This document shows positions 6,208 to 28,029 of a stretch of 64,000 bases of DNA, piece after piece (the stretch's first letter is position 1; each line of letters opens with the position of its first letter). Where the stretch lies: contig JAUIJZ010000008.1 in the NCBI GenBank assembly GCA_030430715.1, forward strand, positions 1,450-65,449. The letters run 5' to 3'. A program made the translations under genes and the position numbers. The notes beneath the pieces were generated by a model, which searched no databases, was not told the origin of the DNA, and saw nothing but the letters and a program-made list of their open reading frames with translations. This DNA is from Alphaproteobacteria bacterium. Its GTDB lineage: Bacteria; Pseudomonadota; Alphaproteobacteria; Caulobacterales; Aquidulcibacteraceae.

Positions 6208-6242
6208 GTAAAACAAAGAACGGGCGAGGAGGGCGCGCACGA

Positions 6243-7895: not shown

Positions 7896-8010
7896 CGAGG
7901 CGTCTGGGATCATCGGGGCGATAACAGCACCGCGCGGGCGGCAGAGGCCTCGCACTGGGGCCGGGCGCGGCTTAAATATGCTGTCCGGTGCGCATGAGGG
8001 AGATGAGAAC

Positions 8011-9477: not shown

Positions 9478-9496
9478 GGGCGCGCGCAGGGAGTTG

Positions 9497-10213: not shown

Positions 10214-10216
10214 AGC

Positions 10217-11716
10217 TCATTTTGTATTGAATAGGGCACGCAAAGCAGGGCGGTCCGTCTTTACGGAAGGCGTGCGCGGCAAGCTTTCGACAATGCGCCA
10301 TTGTGTTGGGATATGTGTCGCGGGCACATGCTGACGCAGGTGTATTTCAAGCTCGACAATATCTGGCGTCGGGGCGGCCGGTTTCACTTCGATCGCTGCG
10401 GCTGGGGTTTGGCCAAGCCGGCGGTCGGCAATGCCGATCACACCAGCGGCCGCTACGGCCGGGTGCAATAACAGCGCGCGCTCAATCGTTTCCGGAAGCA
10501 GCTTGAACCCGCCGCGCATGATGGCGCCGTCTGCGCGGCCGCGATGGAAAATGAATCCATCTTCGTCGATCAATGCGATGTCAGAGGTGTGAATCCAATC
10601 TGGGCCAATCCGGGGTGAAATCACTTCGAGAATGCCTTCTTGGCCTGGAGGCAATGGCGCGCCTGTCTCGATGTCGACCACGCGTAATTGCGCGCCAGGG
10701 ATTGGCTTGCCGACGCTGCCGAATTTCTTTTCACGCCATTCCTGATAGAGCGCCGGCGTCCATGCTGTTACCGGACCGCCAAACTCGGTAGCGCCATAGG
10801 AGAGCAGGATCGGGACGCCGTAATGGTCTTCAAAAGTGCGATGTACAGTCGGATCAAGCGGCGCGGCGCCTGCGCCCATGCTTTCGATGCAAGACAGCTC
10901 TTCGCGCGGAATGTTGGCGTCGAGCACCATCTGATATCCGGCAGGCGGCAAACCGCTGCGGCGCGGGCGGTAGCGAACGAGGTGGTCGCGCCAGCCCTCC
11001 ACGGTGAAACGCTCAAGCAAGACGACGCGCTGACCGCTGAGAAGCGTCGGCACGGTGGTGTAGATGCCTGAGATGTTGCCGAGCGGGAAATAGAGGAGCG
11101 CGGGCGGCTGTTTTTCAGGCGTCTGCTGGAACAGGTTGAAGCCCAGATAGTGGCGCGCAATCAGGTCATAACGTAGCGGGAATTGTTTAGGCGGGCCGGT
11201 GGTGCCGCTGGTCAGGATGTCGATGCGCGCTTCGCCTTCGGCGTCGGGGCTTTGGCGTGTGGCGTGTTCAAATCCGGCAATCGGCGCGGCATCCATTTCG
11301 CTGAGCCCAATGAGTGCAACGCCGTGCTCACGCGCCATGTCGCGTACATCCTCAACGCAATCGGCGGCGTCGGCTACAAGCACGGGCGCGTCCAGGCGTA
11401 AGACATCACGCGCGATCCCGGCTTTGGATTGATACGCATAAATCATACAGATATTGCGCTTTTCGGCGATCAGGCCGACCAAAGCCGCGAGCGCCGCCGG
11501 CCGGTTGTGCGGTGCGAATGCGATGGGTGTGCGTGGGCTGGCGCCGCTGGCGGCGATGGCGGCTTTGAGAGCAGCCGCGATCCGGCGCAGGTCGCCCCAG
11601 GTGAACCATCGGCCTTTGAACTCGATGGCCGGATCAGAATCCGGGCGTGAAAGCGCTTCGCGCGCGAGCATGTCTAGAGACGCAGGCTCGGATGGCGTCT
11701 CTTGGCGCGGTGTCAT
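10217..11716 (-). CDS. Acyl-CoA synthetase (AMP-binding, class I adenylate-forming)
   Basis: TSGTTGPPK, YGATE, GRAD and terminal PRTPSVK. Confidence 0.9.
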   Translation of the reverse strand: MTPRQETPSEPASLDMLAREALSRPDSDPAIEFKGRWFTWGDLRRIAAALKAAIAASGASPRTPIAFAPHNRPAALAALVGLIAEKRNICMIYAYQSKAGIARDVLRLDAPVLVADAADCVEDVRDMAREHGVALIGLSEMDAAPIAGFEHATRQSPDAEGEARIDILTSGTTGPPKQFPLRYDLIARHYLGFNLFQQTPEKQPPALLYFPLGNISGIYTTVPTLLSGQRVVLLERFTVEGWRDHLVRYRPRRSGLPPAGYQMVLDANIPREELSCIESMGAGAAPLDPTVHRTFEDHYGVPILLSYGATEFGGPVTAWTPALYQEWREKKFGSVGKPIPGAQLRVVDIETGAPLPPGQEGILEVISPRIGPDWIHTSDIALIDEDGFIFHRGRADGAIMRGGFKLLPETIERALLLHPAVAAAGVIGIADRRLGQTPAAAIEVKPAAPTPDIVELEIHLRQHVPATHIPTQWRIVESLPRTPSVKTDRPALRALFNTK

Positions 11717-11783
11717 GAGCGGCTTTCCTCCTGTGGCGGAGTCTACCATCGCGGAACACGCGGAAAACCTCTAAACTTGGAGC

Positions 11784-12749
11784 ATGGACGTGCAGGAATT
11801 GATCGTCGCGCCACAGGATCTACCCGACGCCGTAGCGGCTGGGCGCAATCTGGCGTTTATCGATCTGGAATCTTGTCTATCCGACACGCGCATTGCGGAA
11901 GCATCCATACCTTTGGTCGGAATTGGCGATCGCGCGCATCCGGCGGCGCCCGCGCTCGACGCGATAATTGAAGAGCCGATAAGTGCGGATGCGATTGCGC
12001 GGCAGGTTGAGCGGGCGCCGAAGGCCGCAAGCGTCGCCATGCAATTGCTGCGCGCTTTGGAGGGGATCGACGCGTCGCGCGCGCTGATGCTGGAGTCGAT
12101 GTGCTACGGGCTGCTGCAAGGCAGCGCTGAACATCGGGGCTGGCTGGCGGGGCGCAAGCCCGCGCCCAATGCACTACCCGACGGACGTGTGCGTTTGGAG
12201 CGGCGCGATGACGTGCTGCGCATCGTGCTCGATCGTCCGGAGGCGCGAAACGCCATTGGCCGTGTCATGCGCGATGGATTGAGCGAAGCCTTTGCTGTCG
12301 CCGGCGCCGATCCGGATATCAAAATTGTGGAGCTGCGCGCCGCAGGGGCGGCATTCAGTATCGGCGGCGATCTCGAGGAATTCGGCGTCACGGACGACCC
12401 GGCAAGCGCACACATTATCAGGAGCCGCACATTGCCGGCTCAGATGCTTGCGATGAGCGGCCGTGCGCAAAGCCTCCATGTGCATGTCCAGGGCGCATGT
12501 GTCGGCGCGGGCATGGAGTTGGCTGCCTTTGCAGGGCGTGTGACGGCCTCCGCTAATGCTTGGTTCCAGCTTCCGGAACTGGCCATGGGGCTCATCCCAG
12601 GCGCTGGTGGTTGCGTATCCGTGCCGGGCCGCATAGGCCGCCAGCGCGCCGCTTTGATGCTGCTTTCCGGACGGCGTATCAGCGCCAACACGGCGCTGGC
12701 ATGGGGGCTGGTGGACGAGATCAAAGAGCATGCGCCGGATGACGCCTAG
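11784..12749 (+). CDS. Enoyl-CoA hydratase/isomerase family protein with N-terminal extension
   Basis: FSIGGDL, GAGMEL, LPELAMGLIPGAGG. Confidence 0.88.
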   Translation: MDVQELIVAPQDLPDAVAAGRNLAFIDLESCLSDTRIAEASIPLVGIGDRAHPAAPALDAIIEEPISADAIARQVERAPKAASVAMQLLRALEGIDASRALMLESMCYGLLQGSAEHRGWLAGRKPAPNALPDGRVRLERRDDVLRIVLDRPEARNAIGRVMRDGLSEAFAVAGADPDIKIVELRAAGAAFSIGGDLEEFGVTDDPASAHIIRSRTLPAQMLAMSGRAQSLHVHVQGACVGAGMELAAFAGRVTASANAWFQLPELAMGLIPGAGGCVSVPGRIGRQRAALMLLSGRRISANTALAWGLVDEIKEHAPDDA

Positions 12750-12752
12750 GCG

Positions 12753-13661
12753 TCAGATTTTGGAGATCACATCAGCGCCAATGCGTTCAGCGTTTTCGCA
12801 CCATTCTTTGACGTTATTGCCGCTAACGTGGAGCGCGGCGGAAAGGATGCCGCGATCTTTGAAGCGGCCGATCTTGTCGATCAGGGATGCCGGCGTCCAT
12901 TGCTCGCCGGGCGAGGTGAGGCTGCTGAGGTGAACCTCCGGCATTTTTAGCCCAGTTTTTTCGGCGTGCGCGCGCATGTAGGCGATGCCTTCGTCGATAT
13001 CGAGTTCGCTATTCATAGCTTGCGTGCGCGCTGTCGCGGAAAGCTGTGCGGGGCCGGTGAAGAACGGATACCAGGCGTCGCCGAGTTCAACGGCGCGACG
13101 GATTGCGCGCTTGGAATTGCCGCCGATCAGAATAGGCGGATGCGGACGCTGTAAGGGGCGCGGCATGACGCGATTGCCGAGAGCCTGATAGCCCGTGCCT
13201 TCAAAAGTGAATTCATCTTGCGTCCACGCCGCTTTCAGCGCGCGGATATATTCATCCATGATTTCGTTGCGTTGATCGAAATTGGCGCCGAGCGCCTTGT
13301 ATTCGCCTTTTAAGTAACCTGCGCCGACACCAAGCGAAACGCGGCCTTTGGAGAAGATGTCGAGTGTGGCGACGGAGCGCGCAACGATGAAGGGATTGCG
13401 GTAGGGCAGCACGAGGATGCCGGTTTGCAGGCGCAGGGTTTTGGTCGCAGCCGCGATGAAGGACAGCATGACGAATGGATCTTGCGCGTTGTGCCCACCG
13501 GCATCGAGCCAACGGCCCGTCGGCGCCGGGTGATCGGTGACGCATGCGCCCGCAAAGCCAGCGCGTTCCGCCGCTTGGGAAATCGCGGTCACTGCTTCCG
13601 GCGTCTGGAAATCGTCCGGCGTGCCGGAACGATCGAAGGGCATGGTGACGTTAATTCTCAT
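12753..13661 (-). CDS. LLM-class oxidoreductase, probably F420-dependent (Rv2161c-like)
   Basis: TDHP, DPFVML, LPYRNP, GVGAG...E, IGGNS motifs. Confidence 0.85.
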   Translation of the reverse strand: MRINVTMPFDRSGTPDDFQTPEAVTAISQAAERAGFAGACVTDHPAPTGRWLDAGGHNAQDPFVMLSFIAAATKTLRLQTGILVLPYRNPFIVARSVATLDIFSKGRVSLGVGAGYLKGEYKALGANFDQRNEIMDEYIRALKAAWTQDEFTFEGTGYQALGNRVMPRPLQRPHPPILIGGNSKRAIRRAVELGDAWYPFFTGPAQLSATARTQAMNSELDIDEGIAYMRAHAEKTGLKMPEVHLSSLTSPGEQWTPASLIDKIGRFKDRGILSAALHVSGNNVKEWCENAERIGADVISKI

Positions 13662-13671
13662 CGGATCACCT

Positions 13672-14532
13672 TCAGGCTTTCAGGGTTTCCTCGACGAGCA
13701 CCCACTTACCGGTTTGATTGCGCACCCAGCCGCTCGACGCCCATGTGCCGCCATCGACGGGAAGAGTAGCGCCATTCACATAAGCACTCATGTTCGACGC
13801 GAGAAACACGGCTGCGTCGCCGCATTCGCTATCGATGCCGGCGCGTCCTGCCGGAATGCGGCGCGCGGTGGCGTCGTCTTGGGCGGCGTTCGGCTTGAAC
13901 CATTTGGACTCATCGACGGGCCCGCCAATATTGCCGCGCGTGCCCGGCGTGATTGTGTAGTCCGGCGCTATGGCGTTGACGCGAATACGGTGCTCCGCCA
14001 GCTCGAGCGCCATCGTGCGCGTAAAATTCAGCATGCCGGCCTTACAGGCCGCGTAGGCCGCATAGCCGGGCGCTGCGCGCGAGCCCTCAATACTGGCCAC
14101 ATTGATGATGGCGCCGCCGCGCTTGCCTTTGATGATTTCTGGAACCGCAGCGTGCGTGGCGGCGAACATGCTGACTAGATTGAGGTCTATCAGTTTACGC
14201 CAGCTTTTTTCGGATTGGTCCAAAAAGGGGCGCTGATTAGTGCCGCCAGCATTGTTGACGAGAATATCGAGCCGGCCGAATTCCTTCGCGGCTCGCTCGA
14301 CCGTTGCTCGGATTTTGTCCGTATCGGCAACGTCTGTCGGCGCGGAAAGGGCGCGGCGTCCTAAGGCGCGCACGCGTGCGGCGGTCTCCTCGCAACGCTC
14401 CGGAACAATGTCGGCTATGACGATATCAGCACCGACGGACGCGAAGGCCAGCGCAATGGCGCGCCCGATGCCGCCGCCGCCACCGGTGATAATGGCGACC
14501 TGTTCGGTCAAAGACATATCGGGCGGGGGCAT
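13672..14532 (-). CDS. SDR family oxidoreductase
   Basis: TGGGGGIG, NNAG, YAACK; AGAGG upstream of the start. Confidence 0.92.
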   Translation of the reverse strand: MPPPDMSLTEQVAIITGGGGGIGRAIALAFASVGADIVIADIVPERCEETAARVRALGRRALSAPTDVADTDKIRATVERAAKEFGRLDILVNNAGGTNQRPFLDQSEKSWRKLIDLNLVSMFAATHAAVPEIIKGKRGGAIINVASIEGSRAAPGYAAYAACKAGMLNFTRTMALELAEHRIRVNAIAPDYTITPGTRGNIGGPVDESKWFKPNAAQDDATARRIPAGRAGIDSECGDAAVFLASNMSAYVNGATLPVDGGTWASSGWVRNQTGKWVLVEETLKA

Positions 14533-14644
14533 GTGTCACCTCTGTTCAGGAGGCAGAATAGCGCGGCGACTGAAGGCGTAGCATAGCACGCACGGCTAGA
14601 TACCGCACGGGCGATATCTAGGACCTGTGCGCCAGTGGATCCTG

Positions 14645-15232
14645 CTATGCGCGCAATGCCTCCGGCACATCCGCCAGATCGTTCGGCTCGTCTATGTCTA
14701 GCGCCAAGGTTGGCGAACAGATCGCGGCTATATTGAGTGCGAGGCGTTCAATCTCGGCGCTATGCAAAGCGAAGCTGTTCGCCCCGAATTGAAATTTGAA
14801 ATCGGCTGCGGCTGGGAGAGGCAGCGATAGGGCGTTTGTGCCGGAGCGTTTACGATCGGGTGCGATGGCGCAAACATCGGCTCCAAGCATCGCGAGTGCG
14901 TCTACATCATGGGATGTGAGCTTTGGCAGATCGGCTGCAATGATGATGACGCGGTCGACGCCCGCTTTAGCAGCGACGTGGAGCGCTTGCGTAAGCTCGT
15001 CATTGAGGCCTGCGCCTCGGTCCGCGAGCCGCGGAGTTGAGTGTGGCAAGGCATGGCGCGATGGCCCAAGCACATAGACTTTGTCGACGTGCAATGCTGC
15101 GCTTGTCGTCTCCACCACATGGCGCAGCATGTTCGCAACAAGGCGCAGGCGGGCCGTTTCACTGAGCGCCGGCTGAAGCCTTGTTTTGCAATTTTGGGGC
15201 GCCTTGATTGGCGTAATGGCCCAGCAGGTCAC
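14645..15232 (-). CDS. cofC: 2-phospho-L-lactate/phosphoenolpyruvate guanylyltransferase
   Basis: PIK...KTRL, GLN, ADLP, PDR..GTNAL, FG..SF..H, DID...DL motifs; GTG start; neighbours cofE/cofD. Confidence 0.92.
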   Translation of the reverse strand: MTCWAITPIKAPQNCKTRLQPALSETARLRLVANMLRHVVETTSAALHVDKVYVLGPSRHALPHSTPRLADRGAGLNDELTQALHVAAKAGVDRVIIIAADLPKLTSHDVDALAMLGADVCAIAPDRKRSGTNALSLPLPAAADFKFQFGANSFALHSAEIERLALNIAAICSPTLALDIDEPNDLADVPEALRA

Positions 15233-15525
15233 GACGGCATGGACTTAAGGCCGAGCACAAAGTCCTTGTTCGCTGGCGCAATATTGTTAGCGGCGAACGC
15301 GGCCTCGCTATGTTTGGCGTGCGGATGCGCAAGGTGACTGGGGTGTTCCGCGCGGCCGGCAATGGCGAGTACAGCCATGATTATCTCCCAAGACGCTTCA
15401 AGCATGCGCGCGCGCTAGCCGCAATCGGGCTCGACTGGACAGGTTCGGCTTGTGGCGCCACTGTTTGCCACGGCTGCAGCGGCGGCTGTAATAGGCAATC
15501 CGCTGAGGCGAAAGGGTGCTTTCAG

Positions 15526-16335
15526 ATGCAGCCAGAAGACGCGCCCGCTTCCGGGCCAAGCGTCGTCACCGGCATGAGTGTGACGGTTCTACGTGGGTTG
15601 CCAATGTTTCAAGAGGGCATGAGCGTAGCGCGCGAAATCGCCAAGGCCGCACTGCATGTAGGGTTTAATGTCAACGACGGCGATGTGGTGGTGGTCGCTC
15701 AAAAAATAGTCTCGAAGGTTGAAGGGCGAAAAGTGCGTCTGAGTGATGTGGAGGCTGGCGCGGAGGCAGAGACGCTTGCGCAGCGCACTGGCCGGCCTGC
15801 CGCTCTGATGCAATTGATGCGTGATGAAAGCGCTGAGATTATGCGCGCTACGCCACAAGTGACGATCACGCGTCAACGCACCGGTCATGTTGCAGCAAAT
15901 GCGGGCATAGATGCGTCCAATATAGAAGGCGGCGAAGATGACGCCGTTTTGCTTTGGCCGCGCGATGCGGACGCTAGCGCGCGGGCCATCCGTGCTGAGC
16001 TAAGCGCAGCGTCAGGTGCGGCGCCTGCTGTGTTGATCGCCGACAGTTTGGGCCGCGCATGGCGCATGGGCACAATTGGCACGGCGATTGGCTGCGCTGG
16101 ATTGCAAGTACTGCACGATCGCTGCGGCGAGGCTGACCTCTTTGGCAGGGCGTTGCGCGCCACGTTGGTCGGTGTTGCGGACTCGATTGCGGCGGTGGCG
16201 GTCTTGGCCATGGGCGAGGGGGCGGAGGGCACGCCGGTTGCGATTGTGCGCGGGGTGCAGCGTTATGTGACGCGCGAGGATGGAAACGGCGCGGTTATGG
16301 CTCTGCGTCCGCTGGATCAGGATCTATTCCGGTGA
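15526..16335 (+). CDS. cofE: Coenzyme F420-0:L-glutamate ligase (stand-alone, no nitroreductase domain)
   Basis: VAQKIVSKVEGR, ANAGIDASN, DSLGRAWR, GEGAEGTP, ending RPLDQDLFR. Confidence 0.92.
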   Translation: MQPEDAPASGPSVVTGMSVTVLRGLPMFQEGMSVAREIAKAALHVGFNVNDGDVVVVAQKIVSKVEGRKVRLSDVEAGAEAETLAQRTGRPAALMQLMRDESAEIMRATPQVTITRQRTGHVAANAGIDASNIEGGEDDAVLLWPRDADASARAIRAELSAASGAAPAVLIADSLGRAWRMGTIGTAIGCAGLQVLHDRCGEADLFGRALRATLVGVADSIAAVAVLAMGEGAEGTPVAIVRGVQRYVTREDGNGAVMALRPLDQDLFR

Positions 16336-17294
16336 TGGAAGGGCATGTGCTGGCGCTCTGCGGCGGCGTGGGCGGCGCCAAGTTCGCGGCGGGGCTGGCG
16401 GCAGTGCTGCCCCCGGAGCAGCTAACCATCGTCGTCAATACGGGCGATGATTTCGAACATATCGGGCTCAGCATTTCGCCAGACATTGACACCGTCTTGT
16501 ACGCCTTGTCCGGGCTTTCCGATGCTGTGCGCGGCTGGGGAGTCGCTGATGAGAGTTGGCGCTGCATGGAGATGCTTGAGCGCTTGGGTGAGCCGCAATG
16601 GTTCATGCTTGGCGATCGCGATCTCGCCATGCATTTGGCGCGCACCCATCGCTTGCGCGCCGGAGAGACTTTGTCGGGGGTCACATCAGATCTCGCGCTT
16701 CGCCTAGGTATTGCAGCGGCGATCGCACCCATGAGCGACGACCGTGTGCGCACCGAGGTTGACACCGAGCAGTGTGCGTTGCCGTTTCAACGCTATTTCG
16801 TCGCTGAGCAGTGTAAGCCCGTGGCGCGCGCCATTCGCTACGTGGGTGCAGAGGTGGCGCGACCATCACCGGCTTTTTCCGCTGCCTTGACGCGGCGTGA
16901 CCTCGCCGCCGTGATGATCTGTCCGTCCAATCCCTATCTCAGCATAGACCCGATCTTGGCGGTTCCTGGCGTGCGTGCGCAGTTGGAGCGTGTGCGTGCG
17001 CCGCGGGTGGCGGTCTCGCCGATTATCGCCGGCAAGGCGCTCAAAGGGCCTGCGGCCAAGCTCATGGGGGAGCTTGGGGTGGAGCCGGATGTAGTTTCTG
17101 TTGCGCGCCATTATCGTGAGCTGATCGACGTGCTGATCATTGATGAGTCCGACGCTGCGCGTGCTGGCGATGTCGAGGCCGTTGGCGTAAAGGCGGTGAC
17201 AGCGCCCGCCATCATGCGTACGGCGGCTGATCGTGCTGCGCTCGCACGCGAAGCATTGGCGGCGGCGCGCCAGTCGAAGGGAGTGGCCGTTTGA
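16335..17294 (+). CDS. cofD: 2-phospho-L-lactate transferase
   Basis: GGVGGAKF, NTGDDF, SPDIDT, LGDRDLA, PSNPYLSIDPIL, KGPA; overlaps cofE stop. Confidence 0.95.
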   Translation: MEGHVLALCGGVGGAKFAAGLAAVLPPEQLTIVVNTGDDFEHIGLSISPDIDTVLYALSGLSDAVRGWGVADESWRCMEMLERLGEPQWFMLGDRDLAMHLARTHRLRAGETLSGVTSDLALRLGIAAAIAPMSDDRVRTEVDTEQCALPFQRYFVAEQCKPVARAIRYVGAEVARPSPAFSAALTRRDLAAVMICPSNPYLSIDPILAVPGVRAQLERVRAPRVAVSPIIAGKALKGPAAKLMGELGVEPDVVSVARHYRELIDVLIIDESDAARAGDVEAVGVKAVTAPAIMRTAADRAALAREALAAARQSKGVAV

Positions 17295-19630
17295 AACTGG
17301 AGGCGGATACAAGTCTACGGCGTTGGCTGCTTGAGGCGCCGACCGAGACCTTGCTCACGGAAGCGCGCGCGCGTCGTGATGGGCGTGGTCCAATGCGGAC
17401 GACCTATTCGCGAAAAGTGTTTATCCCGCTGACGCAGCTTTGCGCCGATGTTTGCCATTATTGCACCTTTGCGAAGGCGCCGCGCAAATTGGCCGCCACG
17501 TATCTGACGCCCGACCAAGCGCTGGACATTGCGCGGCGTGGCGCGGCGATGGGATGCAAGGAAGCGTTGTTTACGCTCGGCGATGCGCCTGAGCGCCGTT
17601 ATGCGGTCGCGCGGGATGCACTGACCGAAATGGGCTTTGAGCGCACGATCGATTATGTCGCGCATGTCGCGGGGCTGGTGCTCAAGGAAACGGGACTTCT
17701 ACCGCACATCAATGCCGGCGTTCTGAGTGAGGACGATTATCGCCAGCTGCGCGGTGTTTCGGCATCGGCGGGGCTCATGCTGGAAAGCGCGTCGGACAGG
17801 CTGTGCGAACGCGGTGGACCGCATTTCGGTTCGCCGGACAAGCGCCCCGCTGTGCGAATGGAGTCGCTCGCGGCGGCGGGCGTGGTGCGCATGCCGGTCA
17901 CAAGCGGTGTACTGATTGGTATCGGTGAGACTGAAGAAGAGCGGTTGGATGCGCTGATTGCGCTGCGCGATCTGCATCGCCGTTACGGCCATCTACAAGA
18001 AGTGATCGTGCAGAACTTCCTGCCTAAGGCTGGCACGCGCATGGAGCATGCGTCGCCGCCGCCGGAAGACGCTTTTTTGCGGGCGGTCGCCTGGGCGCGC
18101 ATCGTTCTCGATGACGATGTAGCCGTGCAAGCGCCGCCAAACTTGAATATGGCGCGGCTCGCACGGTTGCTTGATGCTGGCATCGACGATTGGGGCGGCG
18201 TTTCGCCTGTGACCGCCGATCATGTCAATCCTGAAGCGCCCTGGCCGGAAGTTGAACGGCTCGCCGCAGTTTGCGCACGTGCGGGCCGGCCATTGACCGA
18301 GCGCCTTACTATCTATCCGAGGTTTGCTCTCGCCTCTGAAATTTGGCTCGACGCGGCCGTGCGCCCTGCTGTGTTGGCGCTAAGTGATGGCGAGGGGCTT
18401 GGGCGGGAAGGCGATTGGAGCCCCGGCGTGGCCGCGCCAGCGTTGGGTTCGTCACAAAAACCGTTGCCGCACGCGCCGGGTATAATGGGCGACGCTGCTA
18501 TTGAGCGTAATCTTGCGCGCGCGCAGAACGGGATGGAGCTTTCGGAAGCCGATATCGTGCGGTTGTTCGAGAGCCGCGGTGCGGCGGCGGAAGCGATTGT
18601 GCGCGCGGCGGATGCATTGCGCGCCGAGGTGAAGGGCGACGCGGTGACGTATGTTGTCAACCGCAACATCAACTATACCAATATATGTAGCTATAAGTGT
18701 TCCTTCTGTGCGTTCTCCAAAACGTCGGCGAAAGCCGGTCATCGCGATACGCCTTACGTGCTCGACTATGAGGAGGTCGCTGCGCGCACGCTTGAGGCGC
18801 GGGCGCGTGGCTCGACGGAGGTGTGCCTGCAGGGCGGTATTCATCCAAGTTATACGGGGGAGACCTATCTCGGCATTCTTGAGTCGGTGAAGCGTGCCTG
18901 TCCGGACATGCATGTACACGCCTTCTCGCCGCTTGAGGTGAGCTCTGGCGCCGCCACGTTGAAGATGCCGGTACGCGATTTCCTGAAACGCTTGAAGGAG
19001 GCGGGGCTCGGCTCGTTGCCGGGCACGGCGGCGGAAATTCTCGATGACGAGGTGCGGGCGCTTATCTGCCCCGATAAATTATCTACCCAAGAATGGCTCA
19101 GCGTCGTGAAGACTGCGCATGAGGTTGGCTTGGCGACGACGGCGACAATCATGTTCGGCCACGTAGAGACTTACACACATTGGGCGCGGCATTTGCTCGC
19201 TATTCGCCGCCTGCAATTGCAAACGGGTGGGTTCACGGAGTTCGTACCGCTACCGTTCGTACATATGGAAGCCCCGATGTTTCATCGCGGAAAGGCGCGG
19301 CGAGGGCCAACATGGCGCGAGACGGTGCTGATGCATGCGGTGAGCCGTTTGGTACTACATGGTGCGATCGATTCTATTCAGTGTTCTTGGGTCAAGCTTG
19401 GCGTGGACGGGGCCGCAGCCTGTCTTGCGGCAGGCGTGAACGATCTTGGCGGCGTGCTCATGAATGAGAGCATCAGCCGCGCGGCGGGCGCTGCGCATGG
19501 GCAAGAAGTCAATGTTGAAGACCTCGCTGCGGCAGCGCGTGCGGCTGGCCGTACGCTGCGCCAGCGTACTACGCTCTATGGCCTGATCGATGAAGGCGGG
19601 TCGCAGGCTCTGGCTCAGGCGCCCGCCTGA
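17291..19630 (+). CDS. fbiC: Bifunctional FO synthase (fused CofG-CofH)
   Basis: Two radical-SAM motifs (CADVCHYC, CSYKCSFC), DDWGGVSPVT.D.VNPE.PWP, SLPGTAAEIL; TTG start overlaps cofD stop. Confidence 0.95.
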   Translation: MKLEADTSLRRWLLEAPTETLLTEARARRDGRGPMRTTYSRKVFIPLTQLCADVCHYCTFAKAPRKLAATYLTPDQALDIARRGAAMGCKEALFTLGDAPERRYAVARDALTEMGFERTIDYVAHVAGLVLKETGLLPHINAGVLSEDDYRQLRGVSASAGLMLESASDRLCERGGPHFGSPDKRPAVRMESLAAAGVVRMPVTSGVLIGIGETEEERLDALIALRDLHRRYGHLQEVIVQNFLPKAGTRMEHASPPPEDAFLRAVAWARIVLDDDVAVQAPPNLNMARLARLLDAGIDDWGGVSPVTADHVNPEAPWPEVERLAAVCARAGRPLTERLTIYPRFALASEIWLDAAVRPAVLALSDGEGLGREGDWSPGVAAPALGSSQKPLPHAPGIMGDAAIERNLARAQNGMELSEADIVRLFESRGAAAEAIVRAADALRAEVKGDAVTYVVNRNINYTNICSYKCSFCAFSKTSAKAGHRDTPYVLDYEEVAARTLEARARGSTEVCLQGGIHPSYTGETYLGILESVKRACPDMHVHAFSPLEVSSGAATLKMPVRDFLKRLKEAGLGSLPGTAAEILDDEVRALICPDKLSTQEWLSVVKTAHEVGLATTATIMFGHVETYTHWARHLLAIRRLQLQTGGFTEFVPLPFVHMEAPMFHRGKARRGPTWRETVLMHAVSRLVLHGAIDSIQCSWVKLGVDGAAACLAAGVNDLGGVLMNESISRAAGAAHGQEVNVEDLAAAARAAGRTLRQRTTLYGLIDEGGSQALAQAPA

Positions 19631-19635
19631 TGCCA

Positions 19636-19663
19636 TTGACGCAAAGTGTCACCGCTCTAGTCT
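19636..19663 (+). promoter_or_regulatory. Putative sigma70-type promoter with an overlapping inverted repeat
   Basis: TTGACG-N16-TAGTCT; TGAC-N7-GTCA dyad at 19637-19651. Confidence 0.4.
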
Positions 19664-19686
19664 GAAGACAGAGAGGGAGATGTCGG

Positions 19687-20805
19687 ATGCGTGTTCAGCC
19701 TGCTGCATTCCTGCGCACGACATTGCCTTTGGATTTCTCGAAACTGAGCGAGTACGACAGCGGGCGATATCACTCGATCTGGTTGCCGGATCATATGGTG
19801 AGTTTCTGGCCGGATTCGATCTGGAGTTCGGAGTTCACGGATCTCGCTTCGGTATCTCCATCGCCACACCGGCATCTCGATGGATTGGCCATAGCCGCCG
19901 CCGTTTCGCAGCAAACGAAAAATGTGCCGATCGCGATGAGTGTGGTCGATACGGTGCGGCGCCATCCTTCGCTCTTGGCTCAGACGGCGCTGACGATCGA
20001 TCATCTCGCCAAGGGGCGTTTCATTCTTGGCCTCGGCAGCGGCGAAACAGAAAACACCGTTCCCTATGGTTTTGACTTCAACAAGCCGGTGGGGCGGTTT
20101 GAAGAAGCGCTTAAAGTGATCCGCTTACTTTGGGATACGCAGGGGCCAATCGATTTCGAAGGCAAGTTTTTCAAGCTGAGCCACGCGCGCCTCGATACCG
20201 AACCCTATCAAGGCAAATTTCCCAGTATTTGGATCGGCGCTAGCGGGCCGCGCATGCTTGGCATTACTGGCCGCTATGCCGATGGCTGGTGGCCGGCGGG
20301 CGCGTGGACGCCGGAGGATTTTGCCGCCAAGCTGAAAGTGGTGCGCGAGTCAGCTGAGCGCGCTGGGCGCGACCCCATGGCGATCACGCCTGCTTACATC
20401 ATGATGTGCCTAATTGGTGATGAGACGGAGGTGGCGGAGATGCTCGAGGCGCCGCTGATCAAAGCGGGCATCCTCATGCACCTTGAGGCAAAGCTATTGA
20501 ATGAACGCGGCTTCGATCATCCGCTTGGTAATGATTGGCGTGGCTACCAAGATATAGATCCTGGTGCGCTGACCCGCGAACGCATCTTGGACATGCTTGG
20601 CAAAGTCGATGTGAGGGCGATCACTTCGATCGTGCCGACCGGCGCGCCGAAAGAGATTGCGAGGATCGTGAAGGGCTATGTGGATGCCGGCCTGCGGGTG
20701 CCGAAAATTCTCGATTACGGTGGAATGGCGGGCATGAAGTATGGCGCGCGTTCGGCAGAGAAAGTGCGCCAGACCGAAGACGAACTGCTGAAATTGTGCG
20801 CTTGA
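19687..20805 (+). CDS. LLM-class oxidoreductase, Rv2951c (phthiodiolone ketoreductase)-like, probably F420-dependent
   Basis: WLPDH, RRHP, GLGSGETENTVPYG, KPVGRFEEAL, GPRML..TGRYADGW, GRDPMAITPA. Confidence 0.8.
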   Translation: MRVQPAAFLRTTLPLDFSKLSEYDSGRYHSIWLPDHMVSFWPDSIWSSEFTDLASVSPSPHRHLDGLAIAAAVSQQTKNVPIAMSVVDTVRRHPSLLAQTALTIDHLAKGRFILGLGSGETENTVPYGFDFNKPVGRFEEALKVIRLLWDTQGPIDFEGKFFKLSHARLDTEPYQGKFPSIWIGASGPRMLGITGRYADGWWPAGAWTPEDFAAKLKVVRESAERAGRDPMAITPAYIMMCLIGDETEVAEMLEAPLIKAGILMHLEAKLLNERGFDHPLGNDWRGYQDIDPGALTRERILDMLGKVDVRAITSIVPTGAPKEIARIVKGYVDAGLRVPKILDYGGMAGMKYGARSAEKVRQTEDELLKLCA

Positions 20806-20809
20806 GCCT

Positions 20810-21973
20810 ATGAGTAGATCTATTCTCGACGCGGACGCGTTGCTCGCGGCGGCTGAGGCCGAAACTGGGCTAAGCGATTATGGCGACCCGACGTTCAAGG
20901 AGCGCTTCGCTATCGCGGCTCAGCAGATTTCGGCATGTGGCATGGATGAGTTCGGGCAGCGCAAGGGCGCAGAGGTTTGCCGTTGGCTTCTGACGTCGCG
21001 CCTCAACTTCTTTGAAGATCATAAGCGCTATCACCTCGACGACGAAAAGATCGAAAAGCCGCTTTTCGCGACCGGAGAGCCTCGTTCGGGAACGACGCTG
21101 CTGCATGCGTTGCTGTCCGTGGATCCGAACGCGCGTTCGCTGCGCTTTTGGGAGGTGATGTACCCTTCGCCACCGTCTGGCATGGCCGCAGATGATGATC
21201 CGCGACGCGCGCAAGCAGACAATGATTGGCGCGAGATCAATGCGAAAATACCCCTTTGGCTGCATAGCCATCCGTACAATGACATGCTCGGCAATGGCTT
21301 GCCCGAAGACGAGCGCACTTGGGCGATGGATTTTCGTGTAATGACGCCGACCGCGTGGTGGCGCGTGCCGATGGGCATGAATTTCGCGGGGCTACCTTCT
21401 GACCCGCGCGCGCAGTATCGGTTGCATAAGATGATGCTGCAGCATTGCCAGCATACGCGTCCGAAGAAGTATTGGGTGCTGAAGGGGTTTCATAACGCGC
21501 GCCTCAAAGCGCTGTTCGAAACCTATCCGGATGCGGCAATCATATGGACGCACCGCGATCCCATACAAACTATTGCCTCGCGCATCGCCATGGCGGCGGA
21601 GATCACGGACGGTCTCGTTGGGCATGTGGACTGGAGGGCGATCGCTAAAGGTCAGCTCGCTTATGCTCGCAACAGCATAAAAACGACGATGGAAAGCCCT
21701 TGCGTGAACGATGCGCGCATCCACCATGTGCGCTATCCGGACTTCATCGCCGATCCGGTGAGAACAATACGCGATTTTTACGAGACGTATGGCGTGCCAT
21801 TCAATAACGAGATGGCGCGCAAGATGCAGGATTATCTCGCCAATAATAGAGGCGATCGCTACGGCAAGTTCGTCTATTCGGCCGATATGATCGGCGAGGA
21901 TCTGGACAAGCTGAACGACGAGTTCGCGCCATTCCGTGAACGGTTCGGGTTGGAGATTGAGAAGCGCAAATAG
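20810..21973 (+). CDS. Sulfotransferase (PAPS-dependent, mycobacterial-type)
   Basis: GEPRSGTTLLH 5'-PSB loop, WVLK, HRDP 3'-PB motif. Confidence 0.9.
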   Translation: MSRSILDADALLAAAEAETGLSDYGDPTFKERFAIAAQQISACGMDEFGQRKGAEVCRWLLTSRLNFFEDHKRYHLDDEKIEKPLFATGEPRSGTTLLHALLSVDPNARSLRFWEVMYPSPPSGMAADDDPRRAQADNDWREINAKIPLWLHSHPYNDMLGNGLPEDERTWAMDFRVMTPTAWWRVPMGMNFAGLPSDPRAQYRLHKMMLQHCQHTRPKKYWVLKGFHNARLKALFETYPDAAIIWTHRDPIQTIASRIAMAAEITDGLVGHVDWRAIAKGQLAYARNSIKTTMESPCVNDARIHHVRYPDFIADPVRTIRDFYETYGVPFNNEMARKMQDYLANNRGDRYGKFVYSADMIGEDLDKLNDEFAPFRERFGLEIEKRK

Positions 21974-21982
21974 GGGGCGCTG

Positions 21983-22792
21983 ATGCACGAGCGGATTTCG
22001 ATCAATAGCATCAGCTTTTTGGGTTCGCCGCTCACGGCGTTCGCTGAGATTTGCCGCGACTTGCAGCCCAAGCGCGTGAGTTTTCTGAATAGCGAGCTTG
22101 ACGATGCGGGCAGCGTGCGGCGGTTGCTCGACGAAGGCCGGTATCGGTTTGAGACATGTACGCATGTCTTCATGCCGGGTCAGCACCTCGATCCGAATGA
22201 GGAAACCTGGGCCGAACCGCGCGCGCGACTTAACAGCTTGATTGATCGTGTCGCAGCGCTCGGCGGAAACTCCATCTACATGCTGACGGGTGGCCACGGT
22301 AGTCTAACCTGGGAGCAAGCGGCGGAAACCTTCGCGGCGATAATTGCGCCCTGCGCGTTGCGCGCGAGGGAGGCCGGGGTTCAGCTGCTCATTGAGAATG
22401 CGTCGGTTCTGTTCGCCGACAACCATATCGCCCACAATCTGCGCGATCTCGCAACGCTGGCGGAGATGGCAGATATTGGCGTCAATGTTGATATCTACGG
22501 CATTTGGATGGAGGCGGATCTCAAGGCGTCTCTGGAGCGTCTCATGCCGCGTTGCCATCTCATTCAGGCCAGCGATTATGTTTATGGAGACCGCTCGTTG
22601 CCGTGCCGCGCGGTGATCGGCGATGGCGCCGTGCCCTGGCCGCGCATTTTGGACTGGGTGTTGTCGGCCGGCTATGCGGGGGCGTTCGATCTTGAGCTTA
22701 TGGGGCCCCGAATTGAACGAGAGGGGCGCGTGGCGGCGAACCGGAGAAGCGCGGAGCGGTTAAGCGAAATGTTGCACAAGCTAGGCGCTTAA
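21983..22792 (+). CDS. Sugar-phosphate isomerase/epimerase-like TIM-barrel protein
   Basis: LLIEN, NVDIY, SD....DR....GDG..PW, DLEL pattern of the xylose-isomerase-like fold. Confidence 0.8.
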   Translation: MHERISINSISFLGSPLTAFAEICRDLQPKRVSFLNSELDDAGSVRRLLDEGRYRFETCTHVFMPGQHLDPNEETWAEPRARLNSLIDRVAALGGNSIYMLTGGHGSLTWEQAAETFAAIIAPCALRAREAGVQLLIENASVLFADNHIAHNLRDLATLAEMADIGVNVDIYGIWMEADLKASLERLMPRCHLIQASDYVYGDRSLPCRAVIGDGAVPWPRILDWVLSAGYAGAFDLELMGPRIEREGRVAANRRSAERLSEMLHKLGA

Positions 22793-22810
22793 AGGAGCGG
22801 AGAGACGCAA

Positions 22811-24040
22811 ATGGCTTTTGGAGCAGCTGCGGAGGATGCGGCGCTGCGCGCGGCCTGGAACGATTTCTGCGACAAGCTGCGCGCTGCTGGCGAGCAGGCG
22901 TTCAAAGACGCCAATCCGGCGAACCCGCTGCAGCGTGCTGATGCGTTCCGCTTTCTGACGCAAAATCTGGGGCAGGCCTTCGATTTGGGGCTTGAAACCA
23001 AGGATACGCGTTATCCTCTGTTGCACGCCTTTTGCTCGCCAACACGCAAGCTTGGCGGAGACGCTGGAGACTTCAGCTATCAGCAAGCCTGGATCGACGG
23101 CGCATCGCGTTACAGGCTCTTCGGCGATCGCGGCACGGCGCGCTTTCTCAATGTGACTGTGCAGGGGCCGCGGCCTGAGAAAATACCGAATACGGACTGG
23201 CCAAGCTTGCATGAGCCGTTCGGCGATATTCCAGAAGCAAATCTGTTCGCGCATCAACTGAAGACGGAGACGGACGGACGCTTCGAAATTTTTATAGGCG
23301 GGCCGGAGCGGGGGGCGAATTGGCTGCCGACAACACCAGGGTCGCGTAAGCTATTCATTCGCCAGGGTTTCGACGCCTGGAAGGAAACGCCGGCGCGGAT
23401 GCAGATTGAGCGGCTGGATATGGAGGCGCCGAAACCGGCGCCGACTCCGGGCGACATGATCGGCGCGATGGATTGGGCGGGGACCTTCGTCACCGGCCTT
23501 ATGCGCGATTGGCCCGAGCATCCGCACGCTTATAGCGGCGGCGTCGTCGATCCGGGGCGACCCAACATCTTTCCGCAAATAGAGGCGACGGGAGCTGACC
23601 AAAAGCGAGGCCGCGCCATCGCGCATATGTGCTGGACGCTCCGGCCAGATGAAGCGTTGATCATTGAGTTCAATGAACATGATGCGTTTTGGATGCTTAC
23701 CAATTCGGGCGCGTTCTTCAACAGCATGGATTATCTGTATCGCCAGGTCAGCTACACGCCGGCGCGCACAAAGACAGATAGCGACGGGATGGTGCGGCTC
23801 ATCCTCGCTCACGAAGATCCCGGCTGTCACAATTGGCTGGACACGCAGGGTTTTGCGCAGGGCAATATCACCTACCGCGAATTGCTGAGCCCGGGAAAAG
23901 CGACGCTGTCGACGAGACTTGTGAAGCGGACGGAGCTTGACGAGGCTTTGCCGGCCGATACGGCTAAAGTCACGCCGGAAGAGCGCCGCGCGCAAATGCT
24001 GGCTCGGTTCTATGGAGTTTTGCGGCGCTACCCGCTCTAG
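22811..24040 (+). CDS. DUF1214-like conserved hypothetical protein
   Basis: KLGGDAGDFSYQQA.IDG...YR..G.RG, L.PDEALIIE, DPG..NWLDT.G pattern of proteins often found beside sulfotransferases. Confidence 0.7.
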   Translation: MAFGAAAEDAALRAAWNDFCDKLRAAGEQAFKDANPANPLQRADAFRFLTQNLGQAFDLGLETKDTRYPLLHAFCSPTRKLGGDAGDFSYQQAWIDGASRYRLFGDRGTARFLNVTVQGPRPEKIPNTDWPSLHEPFGDIPEANLFAHQLKTETDGRFEIFIGGPERGANWLPTTPGSRKLFIRQGFDAWKETPARMQIERLDMEAPKPAPTPGDMIGAMDWAGTFVTGLMRDWPEHPHAYSGGVVDPGRPNIFPQIEATGADQKRGRAIAHMCWTLRPDEALIIEFNEHDAFWMLTNSGAFFNSMDYLYRQVSYTPARTKTDSDGMVRLILAHEDPGCHNWLDTQGFAQGNITYRELLSPGKATLSTRLVKRTELDEALPADTAKVTPEERRAQMLARFYGVLRRYPL

Positions 24041-24723
24041 TCACCGCGTTTCAAATCATCGGTTTGATTTTCAGCCCAGTCTTTGACTTCTGCAGGCCGA
24101 AAGCGCGCGCTTGGCGAGTTTCCTGAAGCGGTACGCAAATCGTAGCCGATAGGATCAACGCCGTCTTCAAGCTGAATTCCAAAGGCGGTGACGGCCCAAC
24201 TCAGCATCACATAATGGCCGATAGTGAAAACGAGATCCATGATCTGCTGGCGATCGAAATGTGCGGATAGCGCGTTCCAGGTACTATCGGAAAGGCGCGA
24301 GGCATCGATGAACTCATCGACAGCATTAAGCACGGCGCGGTCAGCCTCGTTCCAGATCGCAGCGTTTGCGCCATCTTTTATGGCGGCGATCTCTTCCAAG
24401 CTCATGCCTAAATTGACGCAATAGCCGACATGGTAGTGCCATTCGTAGTCGCATTTCAGTCGCCATGAGATGCGGATGACGACAAGTTCTTTGACGCGCC
24501 CCGATAGCGTTGAGTCGATGAGCAGGTGCTTGCCGAATATATTGTAGGCAGTCGCTAGCTTCGGGTGCTGTGCGAGGGTCATGACAATGTTGGTCTTTGA
24601 TCCATCGCGCCATGAATCCGGCTCGCCCCAAAACGCGAAAACTTCGCGAGCGGGATTGTCCCAATCTTCGGGCGGCAGCGTCGGGATGCGAGGCGTGTCT
24701 TTTCTCATGTCTTTCGTCGCCAT
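24037..24723 (-). CDS. Carboxymuconolactone decarboxylase/AhpD-like protein (paralog 1)
   Basis: LAQHP.L, KELVVIRISW...YEWHYH, MDLVFTIG.Y. Confidence 0.85.
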   Translation of the reverse strand: MATKDMRKDTPRIPTLPPEDWDNPAREVFAFWGEPDSWRDGSKTNIVMTLAQHPKLATAYNIFGKHLLIDSTLSGRVKELVVIRISWRLKCDYEWHYHVGYCVNLGMSLEEIAAIKDGANAAIWNEADRAVLNAVDEFIDASRLSDSTWNALSAHFDRQQIMDLVFTIGHYVMLSWAVTAFGIQLEDGVDPIGYDLRTASGNSPSARFRPAEVKDWAENQTDDLKRGD

Positions 24724-24793
24724 TCATTAGGCTGGTGCTTGCATCGATGCGGCAAGGTCGTAGATGATGGCCGTTGAAACAAGGGAGAATTTC

Positions 24794-25477: not shown

Positions 25478-25507
25478 AGCTTTGCGCTCTGTGCGTTAGG
25501 GGGAAGT

Positions 25508-26791: not shown

Positions 26792-26832
26792 GGGCGCCGC
26801 CGAGCCCGGTTTCGATTGGTCTATTAAAAGCT

Positions 26833-26908
<76 letters not shown>

Positions 26909-26972
26909 GAGCCGAAGCGAAGGGCATTGCGCATAGGCTGATTGGGCCCGTGTGTCCAGGGGAGTGTGAAAG

Positions 26973-27683: not shown

Positions 27684-27706
27684 GCGCCTGCGCGTGAGCA
27701 TAAGGC

Positions 27707-28015: not shown

Positions 28016-28029
28016 GCTAAAGTCGGCGC

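Follow-up and report, generated by a model that had tools for sequence, protein, structure and literature searches.

The cofC and cofE-cofD-fbiC genes

The stretch of DNA that was analysed (64,000 nucleotides, hereafter the window) holds the genes for the synthesis of cofactor F420 in the following arrangement, the bit scores being given against the cut-off of each family.

14645-15232, minus strand: cofC (fbiD), 195 aa, GTG start (TIGR03552, 132 bits against 105)
15233-15525: spacer between the divergent cofC and cofE, the site of fno in the clusters of the closest relatives
15526-16335, plus strand: cofE, F420-0:gamma-glutamyl ligase, single domain (TIGR01916, 240 bits against 180.65)
16332-17294, plus strand: cofD (fbiA) (TIGR01819, 286 bits against 257.45)
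17291-19630, plus strand: fbiC, fused CofG-CofH FO synthase, 779 aa, TTG start (NF006687, 1091 bits against 1018)

All four products (4/4) exceed the curated NCBIfam cut-offs (for CofC, CofD and CofE, those of equivalog families), with concordant Pfam assignments. The CofG (TIGR03550) and CofH (TIGR03551) domains of FbiC occupy residues 38-361 and 418-764, respectively, and both radical-SAM CxxxCxxC motifs (CADVCHYC at residue 51 (C51) and CSYKCSFC at residue 466 (C466)) are intact, as had been claimed in the first-pass annotation. This annotation had also described cofC as divergent from an overlapping cofE-cofD-fbiC operon, and its coordinates were right. Neighbouring reading frames share 4 bp, through start codons that overlap stop codons, at both the cofE/cofD (GTGATG) and the cofD/fbiC (TTGA) junction. 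Its description of a core F420 gene set is appropriate for the four biosynthesis genes, but the genome yielded neither Fno nor a dehydro-F420 reductase.

The reading frame of cofE is open from 15310 (listed as 15310-16335), and the extra ~72 aa at its N-terminus are spurious. Since the HMM and the homologues align only from about residue 73-89 of this frame onwards (the TIGR01916 match at residue 90, and the tblastn alignment at window position 15574), the start codon is most likely the ATG at 15526. From there the protein, which lacks the C-terminal reductase domain of FbiB, has 269 aa, and homologues have 258-266 aa. This start leaves a cofC/cofE spacer of ~293 bp, in which neither a match to an Rfam family nor a promoter-like site was found, the count for the region being below the shuffle mean.

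In the predicted pathway, FbiC would convert tyrosine and a riboflavin precursor into the deazaflavin FO. CofC, a side-chain guanylyltransferase, would use GTP to activate a C3 acid (2-phospho-L-lactate (2-PL) or PEP, not 3-PG), CofD would transfer the activated side chain onto FO, and the single-domain CofE would add the glutamate tail.

Flanking genes

The core genes are bordered on both sides by genes for oxidoreductases and, on the right, by three further genes.

12753-13661, minus strand: LLM1, TIGR03619 (Rv2161c-type) F420-dependent luciferase-like oxidoreductase (241 bits against 166.9)
13672-14532, minus strand: SDR-family oxidoreductase, between cofC and LLM1 (Pfam adh_short, adh_short_C2)
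19687-20805, plus strand: LLM2, luciferase-like oxidoreductase resembling Mer, Adf and Fgd (Pfam Bac_luciferase)
20810-21973, plus strand: sulfotransferase, behind LLM2 (Pfam)
21983-22792, plus strand: xylose-isomerase-like TIM barrel (Pfam)
22811-24040, plus strand: DUF1214-like protein (Pfam)

Two divergent operons are predicted. One would consist of cofC, SDR and LLM1, the latter being its terminal gene. The other would be cofE-cofD-fbiC, behind which comes a tightly packed module of four genes (intergenic gaps of 5-19 bp), made up of LLM2 and then the genes for the sulfotransferase, the TIM-barrel protein and the DUF1214-like protein.

The proposal that two candidate F420-dependent LLMs flank the cluster was confirmed, with LLM1 above its cut-off and LLM2 F420-like but below it: the top NCBIfam matches of LLM2 are F420 LLM families, all of them sub-cut-off (118 bits against 166.9), and its best solved relatives are the F420-dependent Mer, fHMAD, Adf and Fgd. 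LLM1 has orthologues in Novosphingobium sp. PhB165 (locus L007, 57% identity) and in the metagenomic locus L106, in both cases at the equivalent position. The SDR also has an orthologue at the same position in L007 (62% identity), and an SDR gene is likewise present in L106. On the other side, the order fbiC-LLM-sulfotransferase-AP_endonuc_2-DUF1214 is shared with a second metagenomic locus, L107, while a sulfotransferase gene follows fbiC in L106. Within the genus, TIGR03619 LLMs occur in 6/6 F420-positive congeners and in 0/35 of the others. The use of the flanking LLMs as an argument for function therefore holds, because TIGR03619 is restricted to F420-positive congeners and both LLMs travel with the cluster lineage elsewhere.

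Host and the tRNA-Lys boundary

FlgI, which is encoded in the window, shares 87-91% identity with proteins labelled Vitreimonas sp., Terricaulis sp., Hyphomonadaceae and Caulobacterales. The host belongs to the Vitreimonas/Terricaulis group of Caulobacterales, in agreement with the Caulobacterales-like host suggested at first. The host is a bacterium of water and wastewater. Its genome is a MAG (98.8% complete, estimated contamination 1.29%) divided into 172 contigs, and for this reason the absence of a gene from it is not proof.

The cluster is located in a region that ends at a tRNA gene.

1-26832: lineage-specific segment with the cluster, with no DNA counterpart in 40 congeners
26833-26908, minus strand: tRNA-Lys(CTT) (ARAGORN, Rfam)

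The absence of this segment from the 40 sampled congeners is complete except for DNA matches to fbiC and Aldh at the level of paralogues. The segment is at least 26.8 kb long, and its left boundary is unseen because the contig stops 1.4 kb to the left of the window. Besides the cluster, it encodes an alkyl sulfatase, acyl-CoA enzymes, an aldehyde dehydrogenase, two CMD-family proteins, and an Nramp transporter. In contrast, the tRNA-Lys gene and everything to its right have DNA matches in nearly all of the 40 congeners, and conserved synteny begins exactly at the 3' end of the tRNA (26833), which faces the segment. In three congeners (G034, G004 and G064), tRNA-Lys is adjoined on its left by a block that the genome under study carries on another contig (C50).

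Like tRNA-associated integrative islands, the segment lies directly against the 3' end of a tRNA gene, and close relatives lack it. No mobility domain (integrase or recombinase) was found in the large ORFs scanned, nor any direct repeat of the tRNA end in the assembly, where the far border falls beyond the contig end. GC content shows no anomaly (0.57-0.64 on both sides, without a step at 26.8 kb). The segment does not correspond to a classical integrative island.

The junction could also be explained by an artefact of assembly or binning, in which a Sphingomonadales fragment was fused to a Caulobacterales contig at a shared tRNA gene. tRNA genes are common points of breaks and mis-joins in short-read assemblies, Logan contigs do break at this tRNA-Lys with many alternative continuations, and the genes on the left side have Sphingomonadales-like relatives. 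Nevertheless, depth is equal on either side of tRNA-Lys in four independent metagenomes of differing abundance (~8, 14.5, 14.5 and 3), and an independent contig, X2, extends from 23609 to 26889, within the tRNA gene. Moreover, genes for Fgd, LLMs and FDOR-A proteins are spread over five further contigs of the MAG, one of them adjoining leuS and holA. Together with the 1.29% contamination estimate, these data make an artefact extremely improbable.

Origin of the cluster

In a tree of FbiC proteins built with a quick LG+G4 method, the protein from the window falls in a clade (100% support) with those of Sphingomonas, Novosphingobium, Rhizorhabdus, and Phenylobacterium, nested within a Sphingomonadales-rich clade, and F420-positive congeners appear in at least three other places of the tree. 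An AU test, whose clade was specified with the tree already at hand, rejected a single genus clade (delta lnL 578, p-AU 2e-62). Sequence identities follow the same pattern: FbiC shares 70-77% identity with Sphingomonas/Novosphingobium-type proteins versus 56-60% with those of F420-positive congeners, and CofD is 72% identical to that of locus L099 (FbiC, 77%) versus 46-50% to those of congeners. The core trp genes of L099 are only 35-59% identical to those of the genome under study. In the few F420-positive congeners, the clusters are unrelated, linked to fno and different in gene order, and 0/24 genomes from the five remaining families of the order have the F420 gene. The order LLM1-SDR-cofC-fno, divergent from cofE-cofD-fbiC, is found in Novosphingobium sp. 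PhB165 and L106.

Because FbiC nests in a Sphingomonadales-rich clade, the congener clusters are unrelated, and one origin in the genus is rejected, it is strongly supported that the cluster was acquired horizontally. The first-pass annotation had proposed such an acquisition, with FbiC/CofD phylogeny against a species tree as one check. The FbiC tree conflicts with a single genus origin, and the lack of the segment in 40 congeners and the pattern of FbiC identities point in the same direction.

Vertical inheritance from an ancestor of the genus or family, with patchiness arising from many independent losses, would have some precedent. Loss does occur in one congener (G019), where cofD and fbiC are frameshifted, cofE is split and fno has an in-frame TGA, and in another (G025) F420 genes flank the equivalent tRNA-Lys on the corresponding side. 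This explanation is hardly credible, as it conflicts with the different lineages, gene order and fno linkage of the congener genes (CofD 46-50%, FbiC 56-60%), with the rejection of the genus-constrained tree (p 2e-62), with the lack of the gene in all 24 genomes of the other five families, and with the nested position of FbiC. The favoured reading, to which a probability of roughly 0.8 is given, is that the locus represents a working F420 module of a Sphingomonadales-centred lineage, which a member of the Vitreimonas/Terricaulis group (Caulobacterales) acquired horizontally.

No experimentally demonstrated F420 producer is known in the host order. Among 401 sampled alphaproteobacterial species, 55 have cofD. 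The initial statement that F420 is only patchily reported in Proteobacteria understates its frequency. The distribution and horizontal transfer of F420 in Alphaproteobacteria have already been described in a 2021 review (PMC8498797); complete gene sets are known to be common in this class, and the novelty of the finding is low.

Predicted reduction and use of F420

No match to the Fno family (TIGR01915) was obtained in the genome at E <= 0.001, the Fno of the closest cluster used as tblastn query gave only Rossmann-level matches, and no fno remnant was found in the cofC/cofE spacer. By comparison, the relatives L099, L105, L106, L005 and L007 carry fno between cofC and cofE, and TIGR01915 is above its cut-off in seven congeners (including the G019 copy with the in-frame TGA). 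The genome does encode an Fgd, unlinked to the cluster (contig C86:4578-5639; full-length TIGR03554 match, 474.5 bits against 420), which shares 82% identity with a Sphingobium faniae protein that bears the name Fgd. Within the genus, this is the only one of 41 genomes with Fgd. Among the 401 alphaproteobacterial species, Fgd was found in seven, all of them cofD-positive, often adjoining cofD. Most likely, F420 would be reduced by this F420-dependent glucose-6-phosphate dehydrogenase, which we infer to be the reducing enzyme of the host.

A further TIGR03619 LLM is encoded on contig C11 (18221-19141) and a near-cut-off LLM on contig C7 (2414-3439). The genome holds a total of five LLM-family genes and two genes for Ddn-like FDOR-A proteins (PF04075). 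F420H2 would be consumed by the flanking LLMs, the LLMs of C11 and C7, and the two FDOR-A proteins.

The arrangement of the cluster has been found in ~20 metagenomes at 95-100% identity. Contigs from two metatranscriptome assemblies also span it, with a flat, low coverage that is possibly DNA carry-over. The earlier view that the cluster is functional in this bacterium agrees with the genomic evidence (intact genes, Fgd, two FDOR-A proteins, F420-type LLMs, and presence in metagenomes and metatranscriptomes), and F420 is probably made in the host.

The cluster might instead be decaying or silent, the first step being the loss of fno, which all close relatives have exactly at that site, and the pseudogenised G019 illustrates that decay of the pathway is possible. 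This is very unlikely, given that none of the four genes is truncated or disrupted and their start and stop codons are coupled, that their arrangement is so highly conserved in the ~20 metagenomes, that within the genus only this genome has Fgd as an alternative reducing enzyme, and that several F420-dependent enzymes are still present.

The side chain

The closest solved relative of the window CofC is 7P97, the 3-PG enzyme of Mycetohabitans. The CofC residues diagnostic for the use of 3-PG have been defined (PMC8764529), and residues M91, C95, H145 and S162 of 7P97 align with L76, L80, S130 and G150, so that no Ser or Thr is found at the S162-equivalent position. All four diagnostic residues of the window CofC are of the 2-PL/PEP type, and a preference for 3-PG is therefore not expected. 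In vitro, the use of 2-PL and PEP by CofC is indistinguishable in Gram-negative bacteria (PMC8764529). With PEP as the in vivo substrate of CofC and CofD, the pathway would stop at the less stable dehydro-F420 unless another reductase exists, and no dehydro-F420 reductase (FbiB C-terminal domain or FbiE) was detected in the genome with TIGR03553 at E <= 0.001.

The genes could thus be active and give a product other than classical F420, either unreduced dehydro-F420 (PEP route) or a side-chain variant. The lack of FbiB C-terminal and FbiE homologues, the single-domain CofE, the 3-PG enzyme as nearest solved CofC, and the inability of the assays to separate 2-PL from PEP would all fit this possibility. 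It is nonetheless considered unlikely: the four 3-PG-linked positions are in the 2-PL/PEP state (PMC8764529), the downstream enzymes are members of families with ordinary F420 as their cofactor, and F420 has been detected in the alphaproteobacteria Paracoccus and Oligotropha, FbiE content aside (PMC8498797). A classical lactyl side chain is presumed.

A more speculative proposal, and a rather improbable one, is that the SDR (13672-14532) and the F420-type LLM1 (12753-13661) supply the side-chain chemistry that is missing in Proteobacteria without FbiE. If so, they might reduce dehydro-F420-0 to F420-0 or synthesize the lactyl precursor, which would explain saturated F420 in Gram-negative bacteria that have only CofC, CofD and CofE. 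Novosphingobium sp. PhB165 and L106 have both genes, which would be cotranscribed with cofC in that proposal, at the corresponding place.

Comparison with known systems

As in the mycobacterial system (FbiC, FbiD, FbiA, FbiB, Fgd, Ddn, and LLMs), F420 would be reduced through Fgd and glucose-6-phosphate rather than through Fno and NADPH, and Ddn-like FDOR-A and LLM-class enzymes would be the cofactor users. Contrary to mycobacteria, the window has neither the FbiB fusion nor its C-terminal dehydro-F420 reductase domain, and the F420-dependent enzymes are far fewer (five LLM-family and two FDOR-A genes).

The 3PG-F420 pathway of Mycetohabitans (Paraburkholderia) rhizoxinica likewise operates in a Gram-negative host that has a single-domain CofE and lacks a dehydro-F420 reductase. 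Its CofC (7P97), the nearest solved structure, differs from that of the window in that Ser162 is replaced by Gly, and M91, C95 and H145 by L, L and S, respectively (PMC8764529).

The clusters of Paracoccus denitrificans and Oligotropha carboxidovorans (Ney et al. 2017, cited in PMC8498797) have the same fused FbiC, CofC, CofD and single-domain CofE. Such alphaproteobacterial clusters are likewise patchy and HGT-shaped, with predicted F420-dependent LLMs nearby. Unlike in them, fno is lacking here from both the cluster and the genome, and the unlinked Fgd is the sole recognisable F420 reductase.

The closest syntenic relatives found are L007, L106 and L107. The locus of Novosphingobium sp. PhB165 (L007) has the same LLM1-SDR-cofC-(fno) order divergent from cofE-cofD-fbiC, with 48-72% protein identity. 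L106 shares the gene order of L007, and L107 has the fbiC-LLM-sulfotransferase-AP_endonuc_2-DUF1214 order of the window. Between cofC and cofE, an fno gene is present in L007 and L106 but lacking in the window, which, in contrast to all three, unites both flanking modules in one locus.

Gene Set and Gene Structure

The genomic evidence supports the view that the F420 cluster of the window was acquired horizontally, that it is probably functional, and that the luciferase-like oxidoreductase (LLM) genes flanking it are linked to it. The four F420 genes, with cofC divergent from cofE-cofD-fbiC, were called from an ORF map and two profile libraries (Pfam and NCBIfam), which agree with one another and with the first-pass annotation, apart from the start of cofE, which has been corrected. 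These genes and the two flanking LLM genes are the following:

12753-13661, minus strand: LLM1, F420-dependent LLM (TIGR03619, above cut-off)
14645-15232, minus strand: cofC (TIGR03552, 132 bits, cut-off 105)
15526-16335, plus strand: cofE, ORF open from 15310 (TIGR01916, 240 bits, cut-off 180.65)
16332-17294, plus strand: cofD (TIGR01819, 286 bits, cut-off 257.45)
17291-19630, plus strand: fbiC (NF006687, 1091 bits, cut-off 1018)
19687-20805, plus strand: LLM2 (likeness to F420-dependent LLMs, below cut-off only)

The intact motifs and overlapping genes described earlier were found again. In the profile search, FbiC shows separate CofG (residues 38-361) and CofH (residues 418-764) domains, both radical-SAM motifs are present (CADVCHYC at residue 51 and CSYKCSFC at residue 466), and the cofE/cofD and cofD/fbiC junctions each hold a 4-bp overlap. 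The best solved relatives of LLM2 are Mer, fHMAD, Adf, and Fgd.

Regarding cofE, the ORF open from 15310 encodes a Cys/Gly-rich N-terminal stretch that matches nothing, and both the HMM and the homologues align only from ORF residues 73-90 onward. A start at the ATG of 15526 yields a CofE of 269 aa, close to the 258-266 aa of its relatives. The stretch 15310-15525 is therefore best read as a non-coding spacer, with cofE starting at this ATG. Automatic annotation may over-extend the gene here.

Distribution and Phylogenetic Origin

The label "Caulobacterales-like" proved correct, since the window encodes, among the flagellar genes of its right half, a FlgI that shares 87-91% identity with proteins labelled Vitreimonas sp., Terricaulis sp., Hyphomonadaceae, or Caulobacterales. 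Within the genus, cofD scores above cut-off in 5 genomes of an initial sample of 37 (own genome included), and a sixth, G019, holds a frameshifted copy. It was found in none of 24 genomes from the five other families of the order, and in 55 of 401 evenly drawn species of the class (47 of 308 genera). The trait is thus patchy in the class, yet far from rare, so that the initial description of F420 as only patchily reported in Proteobacteria holds for its patchiness and not for its rarity. Patchy distribution and horizontal transfer have in fact already been described (Grinter and Greening 2021, PMC8498797).

Besides a strain variant at 98% identity, the nearest FbiC relatives are 70-77% identical, the named ones being from Sphingomonas, Novosphingobium, Phenylobacterium, an Acetobacteraceae MAG, and a MAG labelled Hyphomonadaceae. 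The CofD and CofE of this last MAG (locus L099) are 72% and 68% identical to those of the window, yet between its trp genes and those of the own genome identity is just 35-59%. The F420-positive congeners show 46-50% identity in CofD and 56-60% in FbiC, and exhibit other gene orders, in which fno (the F420:NADPH oxidoreductase gene) always adjoins fbiC.

In an FbiC tree of 134 sequences (quick LG+G4), the window falls inside a Sphingomonadales-rich clade with 100% support, away from its congeners. The congeners occupy three or more other positions: G017 groups with a Povalibacter sequence, G025 and G032 group with a Sphingobium MAG, and G030 and G012 form a branch of their own. Constraining the genus, a group named after inspection of the tree, to a single clade cost 578 log-likelihood units (p-AU 2e-62). 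The dispersed placements and the rejection of a single clade indicate that the genus has gained the F420 trait several times, the window copy deriving, as judged from this phylogeny, from a Sphingomonadales-centred lineage. The proposed horizontal acquisition is strongly supported by this placement and by the absence of the surrounding segment from congeners; given the counts and the rejected clade, the genes are very unlikely to be widespread and vertically inherited in the family.

Several independent acquisitions within one genus are mildly unusual. This genus offers a clean case study of cofactor spread: its FbiC proteins fall into four or more unrelated lineages, one of its pathways is decaying, and two different gene sets adjoin one tRNA-Lys on its island side. 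The decaying pathway is that of G019 (loci L088 and L101; C7:67001-97000), where frameshifts interrupt cofD and fbiC, cofE is in two pieces, and fno holds an in-frame TGA.

The Segment Next to tRNA-Lys

When window 9001-29000 was searched as DNA against 40 congeners, nearly all of them gave matches that start exactly at the tRNA-Lys gene (26833) and run to the right; left of 26833 there are only paralogue-level matches to fbiC and an aldehyde dehydrogenase. Window 1-9000 has no DNA counterpart in the congeners. In three of them (G034, G004, and G064), a block found in the own genome at the end of contig C50 lies on the far side of the tRNA-Lys, after 3.6, 3.6, and 13 kb, respectively. It follows from these bounded matches and the C50 block that at least 26.8 kb (28.3 kb with the first 1449 contig bases) are lineage-specific and fill a variable slot at the 3' end of the tRNA-Lys.

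A chimera or binning error at this join could also produce such a pattern, but it is unlikely. Contig depth is equal on both sides of the tRNA in four independent metagenomes (~8, 14.5, 14.5, and 3), one independent contig extends from 23609 to 26889, inside the tRNA, and five further contigs of the same MAG carry F420-dependent genes. The lineage-specific segment is not a classical island, because no integrase was detected by profile search in the large ORFs scanned, the assembly holds no att repeat of the tRNA-Lys end (the left border lying beyond the contig), and neither a GC step at the border nor another compositional mark of transfer was found.

The segment encodes an alkyl-sulfatase-like metallo-beta-lactamase protein (3-1250), a sulfotransferase (20810-21973), an acyl-CoA ligase, a hydratase, a thioesterase, a CoA-transferase, a KstD-like FAD enzyme, and an aldehyde dehydrogenase. 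This predicted content is reminiscent of a catabolic island whose substrate would be sulfated or lipid-like. The FAD_binding_2 gene of the segment (6255-7381) has a 68%-identical DNA paralogue at own contig C1:15926-17064.

An unrelated F420 set occupies the island side of the same tRNA-Lys/NnrU junction in the congener G025 (loci L093, L086, L094, and L095; C2:40001-110000), with cofE-cofD-cofC 8 kb and fbiC-fno 38 kb from the junction, and no far border within 48 kb. This suggests that the junction is a shared hotspot for accessory redox genes.

Predicted Use of F420

An F420-dependent glucose-6-phosphate dehydrogenase (Fgd) scores above the equivalog cut-off on own contig C86 (4578-5639). 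Judged from sequence, its neighbours are a TetR-like gene, which precedes fgd with zero gap, and a divergent P450-like gene (~520 aa, with a long C-terminal extension), and this region (C86:3283-7951) may be a second F420-linked accessory locus. Among 41 genus genomes, only the own genome encodes Fgd. Across the class, 7 of 401 species encode it, and every one of these is cofD-positive. For five of the other six, fgd and cofD share a contig at a distance of 1-11 kb. The closest named relatives of Fgd belong to Sphingobium and Novosphingobium (79-82% identity). Alphaproteobacterial F420 producers have been predicted to encode Fgd (PMC8498797).

LLMs of the TIGR03619 type are present in all six F420-positive genus genomes and in none of the other 35. 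The own genome holds five LLM-family genes in total and two Ddn-like FDOR-A genes. Its second TIGR03619 LLM (C11:18221-19141, 200 bits), of a family absent from F420-negative congeners, adjoins leuS and holA, housekeeping genes identified from their sequences, and resembles the insertion of one gene into a core region. Fgd would load the cofactor from glucose-6-phosphate, and the LLMs and FDORs would spend the reduced form, making up a coherent, if predicted, small F420 economy.

The claim that the cluster is functional is probably right on this genomic basis (Fgd, LLMs, FDOR-A, and intact genes). The cluster recurs at 95-100% identity, with its gene order kept, in about 20 public metagenomes (wastewater, biofloc, aquaculture, and biofilm). 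Of its sampled words, 58% and 49% are present in two metatranscriptome runs from biofloc; contig depth in these runs is low and flat, so these contigs give only a hint of transcription.

The Type of F420

Among solved CofC structures, the closest is that of the 3-PG enzyme 7P97, which raised the possibility of 3PG-F420. Use of 3-PG has been tied to CofC positions M91, C95, H145, and S162 (Hasan et al. 2022, PMC8764529), and the window CofC shows L76, L80, S130, and G150, the 2-PL/PEP state, so that this reading was rejected on the diagnostic residues. The best guess is classical F420 made via 2-PL, or via PEP and some further reductase. The product may instead be unreduced dehydro-F420, as neither an FbiB C-terminal domain nor FbiE was found by profile search in the own genome. 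This absence of any known dehydro-F420 reductase is mildly unusual, and the locus is a potential test bed for which C3 acid Gram-negative producers use.

Comparison with Related Clusters

The loci L007 (Novosphingobium sp. PhB165) and L106 (metagenomic) show LLM1-SDR-cofC-fno divergent from cofE-cofD-fbiC, with LLM1 and SDR of L007 being 57% and 62% identical to those of the window. In L106 a sulfotransferase directly follows fbiC, and the metagenomic L107 (11387-15776) exhibits fbiC-LLM-sulfotransferase-AP_endonuc_2-DUF1214, the window order. From these placements, both flanking LLMs appear to be habitual companions of this cluster lineage, which upholds their earlier use as an argument for function. 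The window module at 19687-24040 (LLM, sulfotransferase, AP_endonuc_2 TIM barrel, and DUF1214-like gene) is thus matched after fbiC in an unrelated 3.2-Mb genome (L107). The compact CofC/CofD/CofE/FbiC set and its companions (LLM1, SDR, and the LLM2-sulfotransferase module) may be of use in biocatalysis, although their practical value is modest.

The window alone among all close relatives lacks fno between cofC and cofE. A remnant was sought by tblastn, with three Fno proteins as queries, and by blastn against the stretch from cofC to cofE in three relatives; only chance-level matches were returned, homology being confined to the cofC and cofE ends. Promoter and terminator scans of the spacer gave results below shuffle expectation, the only Rfam match in the whole window is the tRNA, with no riboswitch or other RNA in the spacer, and no Fno was found anywhere in the own genome by profile search or tblastn.

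The cluster adds a water and wastewater Caulobacterales lineage (the Vitreimonas/Terricaulis group) to the predicted F420 producers, leaves the current picture of F420 biology unaltered, and is another case of a well-described kind. It differs from L007 and L106, which carry fno between cofC and cofE, and the mildly unusual presence of an unlinked fgd in place of fno shows that acquisition and exchange can affect the biosynthetic module and the reducing enzyme separately.
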